A stretch of DNA of 64,000 bases from Candidatus Hydrogenedentota bacterium (GTDB lineage: Bacteria > Hydrogenedentota > Hydrogenedentia > Hydrogenedentales > JAEUWI01), in contig JAXMOL010000003.1 of assembly GCA_034669905.1 (NCBI GenBank), positions 96,001 through 160,000 on the forward strand, written 5' to 3'. Made by a program: the position numbers. Positions 30,001-42,000 of this stretch are shown in pieces. The first letter of the stretch is position 1, and every line of letters starts with the position of its first letter.

Positions 30001-33000
30001 GCCACGTTGTTGCCGAAGAGTGCGGCCAGATGGATTGGGCTCAGACCCAGTGGTCCCGGGGATTCTGGTGCGTAGCCGTGTTGTACCAGCAGATCGATTA
30101 TCGTGCCCTCGGAGGTGCCCATGGCGGCCCAGTGAAGGGGCGTGGCGCCATCCCGGCTGCGCACGTCGCGGAGGGACTCCGTTTGCAACAGATGGCGAAC
30201 GAGGTCTACATCGCCCTGGTGGACGGCATAGTGCAGTGGGGAAGCGCCTTCCTCCGTGCGCCAGGTGTGGTGGTGGTCCGATGCCAACAGCGCGGTCCGT
30301 GCCGTTTCGGGGTGGTGGGCCATGGTGTGGAAAAAGCGCTCTTCCCGGTTGCCGAACCATCCGAGGGCCACCAGGGCTACGAACAGAACGGTCAGGGCAA
30401 TGCCGAGGCGACGGCCCGGTTTCCACCGGGCCAGGGAATCCCGCCAGGCAATCGGCCGGGGGGCATCGGGGATGGCCGGGTAGGCGACGAGGCACTGGCC
30501 ATACCAATAGGGGCGGCGTGCGATTGCGGCCGCGAAAACAATCAGCCGGGTCCAGCCCAGGGTTGCGATGACAGTGGGGAAAAGGAAAAGGGCGGCCTGG
30601 ACGTAGCGGGGAATCGGCGGTTCCACGAGGATGACCAGCAGCATTTTCAGGAGGAAAAAGAGTCCGGCAATCAGTAGCAGCACCGAGACGGCACCACCGG
30701 AGTAGGGGCGGGAGCCTTCGCCAAAGGCGCGTCGCTCCAGGGGCCAGGAAAAGACCACGAGCACAAGGAGGACAATGGCCAGGGCGATGGAGGGGGGGGC
30801 GTGCCACCCGAAGGCCATACCGCCATGGCCGCCGAGTACCAGGTCCATGGCGAGGCTGCTGCCTTCCACAATCGCCTCGGTCAGCCAAAGGGCGTAGAGG
30901 TCGATGTGGTGGCGAAAGATCTGCTGGCTCATGCGGCTCAGGGCCTGATCCTGCCGCACGTTGTCTGCCCGGGCCGCGTCTGGCGGAAACTGTGCCTGGA
31001 CGGCCCGCGCGATGCGATTGACGTTGACGGCGTATTGGTTGGAGACGGCGCGCCAGTCATCCTGCCAGCCGGGCGTGCTCAGGAAGCGTGGGGTGGGCCA
31101 GCCTTCCCGCGTGCGGGCCATCAGCATGGCAAGGGGTTGCTCTTCTATGGGGAGGGATTGGACGGTGTCGGGCCGCACCATCTCCACGGAGATGCCCACG
31201 GTGTTCTGCCCCCCGAAAGAGACGAGCCCAAAGTGCCCCACGACAACCAGGCGGAGCAGGCAGAAGAGGAGCAGGGGCAGGGTGCAGGCGCCCAGGGTGG
31301 CCACGCCATGGCGAAGCCCCTTCCCAGGGGCCTGGAATCCCCACCGCTTGCCATAGAGGAACAACCAGCTCAATGGCAGAAAGACGAGTAGAAAGAGAAA
31401 CGCAGGGCGCATCTGAAAGGCCAGAAAGACGGACGCGGCGAGTCCCAGGTACGCGATAGGACGACGGGTGGCCGTTGCCCAGAGCAGACATCCGATGGCC
31501 GCCACGGCGAAGCACTTGGCCAGGGTCTCGGGCATGACCACCTCCACCGGCACCACCCAGAGAATCGGCGAGGCCGCGACAAGGGCCGTCATGCCGGTCA
31601 GTCCATAGCGACGCAGTCCAACAGCAAACACGGCGGTGCAGCAGAGAAGCAGGGCCATCTGGGCCACCGGATAACTTTCAAGCCCCCAACCCAGTCGGGC
31701 CATCAATGCGTGAAATACGGGGTAGCCCAGGGTCCGGATGTCGCTCAGGGACTCGCTCAGGGGCCACAAGGGTACCTTGAAGTAGTGGTCTCCGAGTCCG
31801 GGTACGTTGGGTGTCAGTCCATTCGCATAACTCAGTGCAAGGGCGGCTTGTAAGACAAAGAGCGCCATCGCGGTAGCGTCACCACGTTTCATCGTAATTC
31901 CTGTTTGGGTCGGGCGTGATTACCGGAAGCAGTCCGGTGAAGTATTTCCAGTATACGTGGGCGTGGTGAATCGGGCCAAATTGCGCCCGGCGGACGTGGG
32001 GTGGGGGCCACCGGGGAAGGGTTCGCCGCCCTGCCGGGCGGGGGTTGGGCCTAATATTTGGGAAATAAGGCTATATATGGTATCTTGTAAAGAGTTTACA
32101 GCTATATGTGGCATTTCTGCCCTTTCCTCGACGTCGGGGTTTTGGCCAAGGCGTTGGGGTGAAAGAAGTTGGGGAGAATTGCCGTTTGACCGTTTTTCGG
32201 TGCAATGATACAATCTAGTGTGGTCTTCCTTGGGGAACTGTTTTCCATCGCGGACTGCCGCCCCCCGTACCCGAAACCGGAGTATGCCCAGCCTGATGCT
32301 CGATAGTACCAACAGCAGCGGAATCCGAGATGGCAATGCCACCGATCCGCCCGCGCTCCATTTGGGGGAGTTGTTGGTGGAGGCCAAGCTGATTACCGCC
32401 GAGCAACTGGCTACGGCGGAGGCGAAACGGGCGGAGACGGGTGAGTTCCTGACCAAGATCCTGGTGCAGTCAGAGTGCCTGAGTCAGGAAGACCTGAGCG
32501 CGTGTTTCGTTAAGCGATGCAAGATTCCCCATATCAGTTTGCTTGATTACGATGTGGGCAGTGACGTGCTGGCCCTGGTCCCCCAGGAAGTCTGCCTGAA
32601 GCATGGCCTGATTCCCATCGACAAGCTGGGGCGTATCCTCACGGTGGCCATGGTGGACCCGCTGGATACGGAAGCGCTCGACGTAGTGAAAAATGCCTCG
32701 CCCGAGTTGCGCATTAAGCCCATTCTCTGCAATTGGGCGCACTTCGAGCAGGTCACCAAGAAATATTTCGCCGCGCAAAACGCGGGTAAAGGTGGCGGGC
32801 AAATGAGTGCCGCGTCACTGGGCCTGGCCGCCCTTGCGCCGAAACCGGTCGCCAAAGCGGAGGAGGCGTCGCCCGCGACACCTGCCCCGGCGCCGACGTC
32901 CGCTCCCGCTTCATCTTCTTCGGGCGCACCGGCGGCCTCCCCCCCGAGTCCCGCACCGAGCGCTGCCGCCCCCGTGGATACCGGCCCATTGGTGGCTGCC

Positions 33001-39000: not shown

Positions 39001-42000
39001 CTGGATTTCGCCCGTGACCCGAGCCGCCGCTATGCCCTTTTTGACGTGCGTGACGTCGCCCGCGAAGTGGAAGAACAATTGCTCCGGAAGTATGGCGCGG
39101 ATGGCGTTTCGATAACCTTACTGTCCCCCAACGAATCCTGTCTGGTTACGGGGGACAAGACCCAGATATGGCAGGTCTTTACCAATCTCGGGCAGAACGC
39201 CATCGAGGCCATGTCGGGCACCGGCGCCCTGGAGATCGTGTTGGACACCAACGAGGGGCGTGGTCCTATCGAAATTTGTTTTAATGACAACGGGCCGGGA
39301 ATTGCACCCGACAAAGTGTCCCGAATATTTGAGCCGTTCTACACGGAAAAGGCCCGGGGGGTCGGAATGGGACTCGCCATTTGCATGCGCATCATAACGG
39401 CCCATGATGGAACCATTCAGGCCGCATCCCGTGCCGGTGGCGGTACCGCAATGAGCGTTCGCCTTCCGCTGGTGCAGCAAGATGCCGCAGAGCAGAGCGC
39501 CGAGAAAACGAAAGGTTAAGTACCGTGTCAGTTAATCACCGAGTGCTGGTTGTAGACGATGAGCTCAGCATGCGTGAATTGTTGGAAATTGTGCTCCAGA
39601 ATGACGGCTACGAAGTGGATACGGCCGAAGATGTGGAGAGCGCACAGGAGAAGCTCGAAAACAACCACTACGACGCCGTGCTGACGGACCTCTATATGGG
39701 GCAGGATCGGGATGCGGGGATGCGGCTGCTCAGTTGGCTGGAAGAGAACAGCCCGGGCACGCCTTCAATCATGATGACGGCCCATGGCTCGGTGGAGACC
39801 GCGATCGAGGCCATGAAACGAGGCGCCGCCGACTACGTCATGAAGCCCTTCAAGAATGACGAAATCCGGATTCTGATTGAGCGGGCCATCGCGCAGCGAA
39901 ACCTGCTGCGGGAAAACATCGCCCTTCGCCAGGAGCAGGCCCGCCAGGGCAATATCGACAACATGATCGGTAAAAGCCCGGCATTCCAAAAGGCCATGAA
40001 AATGATCCGGCGCGTCGCGGCGCTCCCAAGCACCGTCGCCGTCCACGGTGAAAGTGGCGCGGGTAAGGAGTTGGTCGCCCGGGCACTCCACACCCTGAGC
40101 AACCGTGCCGACAAACCTTTCGTGGCCATTAACTGTGGTGGTATCCCCGAGAACCTCCTGGAGAGCGAGCTCTTTGGTCACAAGAAGGGCAGTTTTACCG
40201 GGGCCACCGATGACAAGGAAGGCCTTTTCGTGGTCGCCAATGGCGGCACGATTTTCCTCGATGAAATCGGTGAAATGCCCCTCATGCTCCAGGTGAAGTT
40301 GCTCCGGGTCCTCGACAACAATATCGTGACGCCCGTAGGCAGCACAACCGATATCAAGGTAGACGTCCGCCTGGTTTCGGCCACCAACCGGGATTTGGAG
40401 AAGATGGCGGAGGAGGGCACGTTTCGAAGCGATTTGTACTACCGGCTTAACGTGATTCCCATTCAGGTGCCGCCCCTGCGCCAGCGCCGCGATGACATTC
40501 CGCTGCTTTGTCGACATTTCGTGGCACAACATGCGAAGAACATGGGCTGTGAACAGCTGGAAATCAGTGCCGAGGCCCAGGCCGCCTTGAACAACTACCA
40601 TTGGCCCGGCAACGTCCGGGAATTGGGCAACGTGATGGAGCGGGCACTGGCGCTGTGTGCCGATGATGAGATTGGACTGGATGATCTGCCGGAAAACCTG
40701 CGGAACTATGAGCCGGACCGGAGCGTGGCCACGTCGAAAGCCGCGGTCCTTCCCGATGAAGGCATGGACATGGAACAGCTCATTGCCGATCTGGAAATCG
40801 ACCTCATCAAGCAGGCCCTGGAAAAGGGACGCTATTCCCAGAAACGGGCAGCGAGCCTGCTGGGCCTCACCGCACGCTCGTTGCGGTATCGGTTGCAGAA
40901 ATACGATCTGGAAGGTCAATAGGCCCCTGCGGGTGTGACGGGGGCGGGCTGTCGGGTGTGGTCGTCGCTATGGTACCCTATGGGGCTGTAGTTTCCTGTG
41001 CCGTTGTACCCATTTAAGCGAGTAGATCATGACGACCATCTTTTCCTGGCTTCGAATTCACTGGAAAAAAGTCCTGGTGTTTTCATTGAAGTTGGTGTTT
41101 ATTGTTTCCCTGTTTGTCCTCCTGTTTCGCCCGGAGACCTTCGGCCTTCCAGCAGACTTGTTTCGCGACATTACGCCACAACAGCTCTGGCATGATCTGA
41201 AGGCCATTGATCCCGGGACGGCTGCCGTCTGGTTCGGCTTTGCCGTGGCCGTAAAGCTGGGCGGTATCTTCGCGGGGGTCATGCGTTGGCGTATTCTGCT
41301 TCGCGCACAGGGCGTACACATCCCGTTCTGGTACCTGACGAAATGCTGGTTCTGGGGGCGGGCCATCGGGCTGTTTCTTCCGGGAACCCTGGGGCTCGAT
41401 GGGTATCGATTGGTGGAATCCGCACGCTATACCGGGGAGCCCATCAAGTGCGCCACGGTGATTGGCGTGGAGAAACTCACGGGGATTATCGCACTTTTTT
41501 CCCTGGTCTTTTTGACCCTGCCCCTGGGACTCCGACTCTTTCCCATCAACCTGGCCCTGCTCGCGGTGGTGCTGCTTATTCTGGCTGGGTTTATCGGAAC
41601 CAGCCTGCTGCTGTTGCTCCAGCCTCGTGTCATTCAGGTGTTCATGGCTTCCTTGCCGTTGCCCGGTGCCGTGCACGAAAAGGTCAACAAGTTGGGCATT
41701 GCGGCCACGGCCTACAGTGCCCATCGGGGAGCCCTCTTTAAGGCGCTGTTTTTCGGGCTGTGTGTACACCTGGGCATTTGCCTCATGTATTTCGGCACCG
41801 CCTCGGCCATCCGCGCAGAGAATACCGGCATCCTGGAAATCCTCTTTGCGAGCCCCCTGCTTATCGTGGGCTCGGTCTTTGCCCCCACGGTCAGTGGCGT
41901 TGGCGTGCGGGAAGTGGTGATGACCACCCTGCTGGGCGGCGTCTCCAGCGGCTCCCAGGCCCTCCTCTTTGGCCACCTGGGCCTCTGGTTCGGGGAAGTG

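Follow-up and report, generated by a model that had tools for sequence, protein, structure and literature searches.

The MshEN/GSPII heads of MshE, PilB and PilF (5HTL, 3JC8 and 6F8L) are the closest described relatives of the N-terminal part of the protein reported here, which has the same full two-subdomain MshEN and, in most members, the 53-residue c-di-GMP motif. Unlike in these proteins, the head sits on an AAA+ module of the initiator clade and not on a secretion ATPase. FimX-PilZ of Xanthomonas is a separate c-di-GMP input to PilB. It resembles the hybrid as modelled below, in which a separate protein would sense c-di-GMP for a PilB with a broken site; however, its domains are unrelated, and the ATPase of its own is a feature of the hybrid.

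The second part resembles DnaA domain III (B. subtilis 8BV3 and 8BTG, T. maritima 2Z4R, A. aeolicus 2HCB and 3R8F) in fold (rmsd 1.8-2.5 Å, 36-40% identity), Walker A and B motifs, sensors I and II and arginine finger, whereas the hybrid lacks domains I and IV, has its ssDNA and AID-1 residues replaced, is fused to MshEN and is encoded in a pilus operon. Hda (E. coli 5X06; Shewanella 3BOS) likewise combines domain III alone with an N-terminal targeting element, keeps the arginine finger and has lost the acidic residues of the sensor II helix, but it is far from the hybrid in sequence (E 1e-13, versus 1e-60 for DnaA), and the hybrid carries no clamp motif and has intact catalytic Walker motifs. 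According to PMC6669920 and 10.1101/2022.03.18.484894, domain III mediates the binding of ssDNA by the DnaA filament, and I190 and T225 are each required for strand separation in B. subtilis.

A literature search, in which subscription papers were poorly covered, yielded no description of an MshEN-DnaA fusion. The survey's finding that the MshEN paper does not mention DnaA extends to its supplements, as the word has no occurrence in the main text and two supplements of PMC5013675.

Results

The window, a stretch of 64,000 nucleotides from a Candidatus Hydrogenedentota bacterium (G000), contains the hybrid gene followed by pilB, pilT, pilS and pilR (Table 1). The start codon of pilT was placed with the help of 357-aa orthologues. 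The frame of the hybrid is uninterrupted, and Pfam detected MshEN (E 1e-14) and Bac_DnaA (aa 613-770, E 9e-53), but neither DnaA_N (domain I, PF11638) nor the helix-turn-helix of DnaA_C (domain IV, PF08299), which agrees with the architecture first proposed, an 850-aa protein of MshEN, linker and DnaA domain III without domains I and IV. The NCBIfam models for DnaA (TIGR00362, 284.6 bits) and Hda (TIGR03420, 108.3 bits) both scored below their cut-offs (343.9 and 194.8). No DnaA box lies near the gene, the two matches in the window being at 30326 and 47887. Only its position makes the promoter candidate suggestive, because the region holds four such sites against 3.5 expected.

Table 1 Features of the hybrid locus
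Feature	Coordinates	Strand	Basis
Sigma-70-like promoter candidate, extended TG	32186..32214	+	10/12 matches; just 5' of hybrid
MshEN-linker-DnaA domain III hybrid gene (P0001), 850 aa	32296..34848	+	ORF, Pfam, NCBIfam
53-residue c-di-GMP motif region, aa 22-74, degenerate	32359..32517	+	6/13 motif residues
MshEN C-subdomain, aa 76-160, strongly conserved, probable protein-docking surface	32521..32775	+	Pfam, identity
Pro/Ala-rich and helical linker	32776..34131	+	sequence and predicted model
DnaA domain III AAA+ module	34132..34830	+	residues, predicted model
C-terminal Ala-Ala, candidate ClpXP degron	34840..34845	+	counts (see text)
pilB extension ATPase	34939..36663	+	Pfam/NCBIfam; own c-di-GMP motif broken (G11P, G40P)
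pilT retraction ATPase	36803..37876	+	TIGR01420, 477 bits (cut-off 319)
pilS-like histidine kinase	37873..39519	+	6TM_PilS, PAS, HisKA, HATPase_c
pilR-like sigma-54 response regulator	39525..40922	+	Pfam

Domain III is as well conserved as the MshEN core (70-79%), whereas the linker reaches only 36-48%. Within the linker, a 29-aa segment occurs twice (aa 305-333 and 354-382), followed by a long helix (aa 499-568) and an (S/N)VxPF motif (aa 577-581), the latter present in 29 of 48 hybrids; family members range from 538 to 1202 aa. In domain III, pN (0.14-0.22) lies well under pS (0.70-0.76), which, together with the intact frame, rules out an assembly artefact or pseudogene and confirms a real, conserved gene.

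Among 121 Hydrogenedentota genomes, 102 had at least two domain-III matches, 18 had one and one had none. The hybrid is not confined to this phylum but also occurs outside it, for example in the Abyssubacteria group. It lies immediately 5' of pilB in all 40 Hydrogenedentota loci fetched, which were chosen among rows with a second domain-III match, in 7/7 further loci and in 9/9 loci of the Abyssubacteria group, so the proposed pilus linkage is supported. MshEN is in frame in 39 of the 40 Hydrogenedentota loci (L054 is split). In G122, the interval between pilD and tonB-pilB-pilT-pilC-pilS holds four MshEN genes, three of which also encode DnaA-III. A place before pilB throughout the phylum, as the survey had it, holds for the fetched loci but not for five other pilB-bearing genomes: MshEN and linker alone remain before pilB in G055 and G076, and no trace of the hybrid is found upstream of pilB in G029, G047 and G106. 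G117 retains a degenerate remnant.

Short MshEN-DnaA-III proteins of 400-550 aa were also found (P0203, P0213, P0221, P0223, P0228, P0229, P0234, P0236 and P0241); in a metagenome scan for such forms, 78 of 80 loci were ordinary DnaAs. In Fermentibacteria records, 8-14 DnaA-III modules follow MshEN or receiver domains. Those that follow receiver domains have lost the arginine finger, and the C-terminal part of the receiver-DnaA-III proteins, which may have some likeness to small GTPases, matched no NCBIfam family and no Atlas cluster at 0.9.

The normal DnaA reported besides the hybrid was found on contig C19 with domains I, III and IV, its domain III being 38% identical to that of the hybrid. 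A clade uniting the hybrid with this resident DnaA, as expected for a recent copy, was rejected (AU test, p=0.005) on a quick LG+G4 tree in which deep branches were poorly resolved and E. coli DnaA stood apart from the other 11 DnaAs. In a separate comparison, E. coli DnaA grouped with the other DnaAs. A split DnaA with domain IV on a separate protein was not found either: domain IV is single-copy in 45/46 genomes, leaving no separate domain-IV partner for the hybrid.

The MshEN fold is supported by Pfam, the predicted model and structure comparison. In G000, the C-subdomain is 67-76% identical to four family relatives and the c-di-GMP part 47-55%. NF053729 scored 38.0 at a cut-off of 38, and the motif carries R9H, G18K, L29E, Q32R, G40T, G47E and Q61R (V. 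cholerae MshE numbering). Across the family, a mean of 11.4 of the 13 residues is kept (n=45, three of 48 hybrids without a usable N-terminus being excluded), including G11 in 44/45, G40 in 42/45 and R9 (R/K) in 37/45; Arg38 of MshE is replaced by Phe, Tyr or Leu. Judging from these residues, most family members probably bind c-di-GMP, and the G000 copy has probably lost this ability. The proposed c-di-GMP receptor is probable for most of the family but not for the G000 copy, whose degenerate motif had already been pointed out. In the cognate PilBs, G40 is kept in 0/62 and G11 in 40/62. PMC5013675 reports poor c-di-GMP binding by MshE mutants in G40 (G40I) and G11; since the commonest PilB residue at G40 is Ala (31/62), a milder change than the tested G40I, such PilBs may still bind c-di-GMP. 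With the motifs of both hybrid and PilB broken, in-trans sensing cannot operate in G000. Heads of the same MshEN subfamily are not restricted to the pilB locus: outside the operon they occur in fusions with cNMP, GGDEF, FHA and HDOD domains.

The predicted model of domain III (pLDDT mostly >90) superimposes on B. subtilis DnaA with an rmsd of 2.2-2.4 Å. The ATP motifs are intact, as the survey had stated: G000 retains Walker A K656, Walker B D713/D714, sensor I D747, arginine finger R763 and sensor II R812, and Walker A K, Walker B DD, the arginine finger (R264), sensor II (R313) and G317 are invariant in 48/48 hybrids. Sensor I is kept in 41/48, having been lost in divergent copies. Of the oligomerisation motifs described as kept, the arginine finger is, but the AID-1 residue R206 and E314/E316 are each found in 0/48; with several DnaA filament residues changed, R206 among them, self-oligomerisation is not assured. 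The ssDNA residues I190 and T225 occur in 2/48 and 1/48 hybrids, compared with 30/30 each in true DnaA. At K222, Lys in 30/30 true DnaAs, hybrids have Lys (6/48) or Arg (30/48), and an acidic residue stands in place of E. coli R245 in 36/48.

The Ala-Ala end is shared by 37/48 hybrids, versus 37/4121 long G000 ORFs, and by 111/120 homologues among the matches listed; ClpX is present. None of the nine Abyssubacteria-group copies has it.

For the hybrid of the Abyssubacteria locus L097 and its own PilB, a complex was predicted with a weak score of 0.56 (best control 0.00), in a range (up to 0.60) that held only 18/157 solved pairs but both mismatched pairs that reached the mark, which was reached by 116/157 solved and 2/215 mismatched pairs overall. 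The runs shared at least 96% of contacts, with partner pLDDT of at least 73. The prediction concerns the L097 protein, not that of G000, and may arise because MshEN resembles the head of PilB itself.

Discussion

Given its architecture, operon position and residue pattern, the hybrid is best read as an accessory regulator of the type IVa pilus motor, with a probability of roughly 0.6. An MshEN head, a DnaA core without DNA-binding parts and a place before the pilus motor gene make pilus regulation more likely than replication. The head would dock on PilB or the motor base, and in most lineages the hybrid would bind c-di-GMP for a PilB with a broken site of its own. The DnaA-derived module may bind and hydrolyse ATP and self-associate via its arginine finger, and the ATP-driven oligomer would act as an on/off switch without DNA contact. 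In Hydrogenedentota, the Ala-Ala end may let ClpXP remove the hybrid and so limit the lifetime of the switch. For G000 and its genus, where the c-di-GMP input appears to have decayed, docking and the ATP switch would remain. The constant place before pilB, the truncated MshEN-linker forms that stay there, the G40 contrast between hybrid and PilB and, weakly, the predicted L097 complex favour this reading. The presence of pilB without the hybrid in three genomes, the Abyssubacteria copies without Ala-Ala, the mild G40 change in many PilBs, the broken motifs of both proteins in G000, the occurrence of the head outside the operon and the altered filament residues speak against it.

An Hda-like regulator, which would give its arginine finger to ATP-DnaA or cap DnaA filaments, with MshEN replacing the clamp-binding peptide and coupling initiation to c-di-GMP or the pilus pole, is unlikely in our view. 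Such a role would fit a protein with domain III only, as in Hda, an arginine finger kept even in divergent copies, the loss of E314 and E316 as in E. coli Hda, a module 38-40% identical to DnaA, and a genome in which Hda was not found (the third PF00308 match in G000 is weak, E 4e-7). However, the clamp pentamer occurs in 2/48 hybrids versus 1.7 in shuffles and the Hda-type QLxLP in 0/48, Walker B DD and Walker A GKT/S differ from Hda's DN and GRS, the clade with the resident DnaA was rejected, and five genomes do without the ATPase. In none of the loci examined did a replication gene follow directly downstream. Moreover, E314 is kept in 9/9 Abyssubacteria-group orthologues, so the Hda-like change is secondary. 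The survey's idea that the protein links pilus assembly with DnaA function is thus unsupported: the ssDNA and AID-1 residues are gone, no clamp motif is enriched, the gene is no duplicate of the resident dnaA, some lineages have lost it, and related modules act behind receiver domains.

It also seems rather improbable that the hybrid is a passive scaffold or localisation hub, in which MshEN and the coiled linker would keep signalling partners at the pole, nucleotide binding would be the module's only activity and adjacency to pilB would reflect co-expression. The variable linker length, the persistence of MshEN-plus-linker forms, the same head on GGDEF, cNMP, FHA or HDOD paralogues and the loss of sensor I in divergent copies would fit a scaffold, whereas the catalytic residues, invariant on either face of the module, and a domain III as conserved as the MshEN core argue against it. 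Least probable is an ssDNA-handling filament for pilus-imported DNA in competence; the known ssDNA filament of DnaA domain III, the R/K at K222 in 36/48 hybrids and the location inside a pilus operon are consistent with it, whereas the replaced I190 and T225, the acidic residue at R245 and the lack of an adjacent competence gene among neighbours screened against pilus references only argue against it.

Beyond the accessory regulator, we tentatively suggest that DnaA domain III might serve several uncultured phyla as a general DNA-free output switch placed after MshEN or receiver domains. The hybrid could then be its pilus member and a pilus component not yet described: an ATPase oligomer gated by c-di-GMP and timed by ClpXP, which would turn PilB on or off from outside.

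Conclusions

Many database entries named DnaA, including several of the matches here, are signalling proteins without DNA-binding parts. If the reading as a pilus motor regulator is true, the replication-initiator clade would have supplied the type IV pilus motor with a third ATPase, and c-di-GMP sensing would have shifted from PilB to a partner protein.

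Hybrid gene and operon

The hybrid gene of G000, the genome under study, has an intact reading frame in which Pfam places MshEN at residues 76-160 and Bac_DnaA (PF00308, DnaA domain III; DnaA-III) at 613-770 and detects neither domain I nor domain IV, in agreement with the architecture reported by the survey. It is followed on the same strand by pilB, pilT, pilS and pilR; pilC is absent inside this operon. The hybrid scored under the NCBIfam cut-offs of DnaA and Hda alike. The true DnaA of G000 is encoded on contig C19, with a domain III 38% identical to that of the hybrid, and Hda was not found in this genome. 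The AlphaFold model shows two confident domains separated by a low-confidence, partly helical linker, and its C-terminal domain and domain III of B. subtilis DnaA superposed at 2.2-2.4 Å.

Features around the hybrid gene (window positions)
Feature	Position	Strand	Remark
Type IV pilin-like gene	24838-25272	+	7 kb upstream of hybrid operon
Membrane protein	28212-31892	-	1226 aa; ankyrin repeats and AlgX-like SGNH domain; divergent from hybrid gene
Promoter-like site	32186-32214		count of such sites in region at chance level
Hybrid gene	32296-34848	+	uninterrupted ORF, 850 aa
Lysylphosphatidylglycerol-synthase TM domain-sulfatase fusion	41029-44082	+	immediately 3' of pilR
PilT/PilU-family ATPase	44133-45620	-	N-terminal extension of ~130 aa
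Hemopexin-repeat protein	45747-46547	+	E 7e-38; signal-peptide-like start

Distribution and relatives

Among 121 Hydrogenedentota genomes, 102 had at least two domain-III matches, 18 had one and one had none; second matches were checked among the matches listed, beyond which lay 77 weaker ones. In 40 loci selected from the rows with a second match, the hybrid gene stood immediately 5' of pilB in all 40, with an in-frame MshEN in 39, and seven additional divergent hybrids were likewise 5' of pilB. The sole match was the hybrid in 4 of the 18 single-match genomes. All 15 genomes without a hybrid match were inspected around pilB: MshEN and the linker alone were retained in G055 and G076, other genes preceded pilB in G029, G047 and G106, and G117 carried a degenerate hybrid remnant. 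The upstream DNA of G115 was too short for a judgement, the contig ended at the pilB start in G004, G060, G072, G081 and G105, and a close pilB orthologue was absent in G018, G020 and G059. The gene is thus common without being indispensable, and the claim that it precedes pilB throughout the phylum holds for the 40 loci but not without exception. Frameshifts, possibly assembly errors, split the hybrid within MshEN in G104 (L054:4992-7530) and pilB in G068 (L046:8159-9886).

Profile searching also retrieved shorter MshEN-DnaA-III proteins and double-DnaA-III forms. In the Abyssubacteria group, a separate 11-genome set, the hybrid gene was present in 10 genomes, and in nine loci (L095-L103, including one record titled Ca. 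Abyssobacteria SURF_17 and one Ca. Poribacteria) the same operon contains a form of 435-471 aa. PF00308 matches numbered 14 and 12 in two records titled Ca. Fermentibacteria and 8 in a further genome of the group to which they belong. In genome G122, the stretch from pilD to tonB-pilB-pilT-pilC-pilS contains three MshEN-DnaA-III genes and one more MshEN gene; six other paralogues of this genome are fusions of a receiver domain to DnaA-III. In a tree built from 50 of the 153 domains, hybrids from Hydrogenedentota and from the Abyssubacteria group fell into a single clade (SH-aLRT 98); a topology uniting hybrids and the resident DnaA in a clade was rejected (p-AU 0.005).

Other arrangements of the module were also observed. 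Receiver-DnaA-III proteins of G122 and G121 (L174-L180, L182) mostly lack the arginine finger, and several end in a C-terminal domain of ~200 aa. Abyssubacteria-group genomes encode a second, ~355-aa DnaA made up of domains III and IV alone (L170:5479-6549 in G123), which adjoins a PilB/GspE gene pair of a type II secretion cluster in G123 and G125. Two divergent DnaA-III modules occur in each of the 1703-aa and 1258-aa proteins of L172:5959-11067 and L173:6559-10332; an AIR-carboxylase-like gene comes next after both, and L172 also has a nickel-insertion gene. Tandem modules occur in many 530-700-aa proteins (P0192, P0200, P0202, P0205 and others), and fusions to DUF835 or zinc ribbons in P0237, P0239, P0248 and P0251.

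MshEN head, PilB and C-terminus

The head was scored on 13 residues of the 53-residue c-di-GMP motif described in sections of PMC5013675. Across 45 hybrids (L054, L092 and L093 excluded), the mean was 11.4/13; 44 of them have G11 and 42 have G40. Here, as in the C-terminus and residue counts, kin are not independent. The G000 copy, noted earlier as degenerate, indeed scored only 6/13, as did L034 of the same genus. In the adjacent PilB, G11 was found in 40/62 and G40 in 0/62 (Ala 31, Pro 16). According to these sections of PMC5013675, MshE G40I and G11 mutants bind c-di-GMP poorly; an Ala substitution is not among them. Because hybrids keep the G40 that PilB lacks, the pattern suggests that c-di-GMP sensing shifted from PilB to the hybrid; in the G000 lineage, the sites of both are broken. 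Conservation is higher in the MshEN C-subdomain than in the ligand motif, and G000 paralogues fused to cNMP, PAS-GGDEF, FHA-GGDEF or HDOD domains share this subdomain, which points to a docking role. These paralogues with a related head lie at C8:136463, C5:6363, C18:108573, C19:100044 and C45:2994, and the MLGW start of 19/48 hybrids also occurs in the C8 paralogue.

Support from a co-fold of the L097 hybrid and its PilB was weak, at a score of 0.56 (best of three controls, 0.00), with at least 96% of contacts in agreement between runs and a partner pLDDT of at least 73. The pass mark is reached by 116/157 solved and 2/215 mismatched pairs, and passing pairs scoring 0.60 or less comprise 18 solved ones and both mismatches. 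This pass may be due to the likeness of MshEN to PilB's own head.

An Ala-Ala end, described as a ClpXP degron in PMC7142297, occurred in 37/48 hybrids versus 37/4121 long G000 ORFs and in 111/120 of the homologues among the matches listed, but in none of the nine Abyssubacteria-group copies. ClpX is present in G000.

ATPase module and proposed role

Residues of 48 hybrids were compared with those of 30 true DnaAs (29 from the phylum, one from the Abyssubacteria group) in B. subtilis numbering, with an offset of 499 from an ungapped alignment; roles follow portions of PMC6669920, 10.1101/2022.03.18.484894 and PMC5742627. The Walker A K, Walker B DD, arginine finger, sensor II and G317 were invariant in hybrids (48/48), and R202 (47/48) and sensor I (41/48) were largely kept. 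Of the ssDNA-surface residues, 30/30 in DnaA, I190 remained in 2/48, T225 in 1/48 (Ala in 47) and E183 in 0/48; AID-1 R206, E314 and E316 were each 0/48. Receiver-DnaA-III fusions retained Walker A/B and sensor II in 7/7 and the arginine finger in 1/7. The earlier statement that ATP and oligomerisation motifs are kept thus stands for the ATP motifs and arginine finger, but not for R206, E314 and E316. Judged from these residues, the module is expected to bind and hydrolyse ATP but not to bind DNA in DnaA's manner, and it may self-associate by way of a remodelled interface. The hybrid shares the nucleotide motifs of DnaA but, unlike DnaA, lacks domains I and IV and the ssDNA-surface residues; by the tested sequence features, it is neither DnaA nor Hda.

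The invariant arginine finger, together with the missing Hda in G000, would fit an Hda-like action on DnaA, but the clamp motif is missing, the divergence from DnaA is old, the gene is dispensable and its context is pilus-only, which makes such an action unlikely and also argues against the survey's proposed link between pilus assembly and DnaA function. A passive scaffold is a little less probable still, and a role with ssDNA in uptake is very improbable; both fit the residue pattern less well than a pilus-motor switch. No description of an MshEN-DnaA hybrid was found in the literature searched, most subscription papers lying outside it, or in the PMC5013675 supplements, a check that the survey had lacked.

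The most likely reading, with a probability of roughly 60%, is that the hybrid is a pilus-motor accessory switch. MshEN would dock at the pilus motor and sense c-di-GMP where its motif is intact, the DnaA-derived module would serve as an oligomer switch dependent on ATP, and the hybrid would be cleared by ClpXP. The DnaA-III module of the hybrids is an old paralogue serving as a signalling output.
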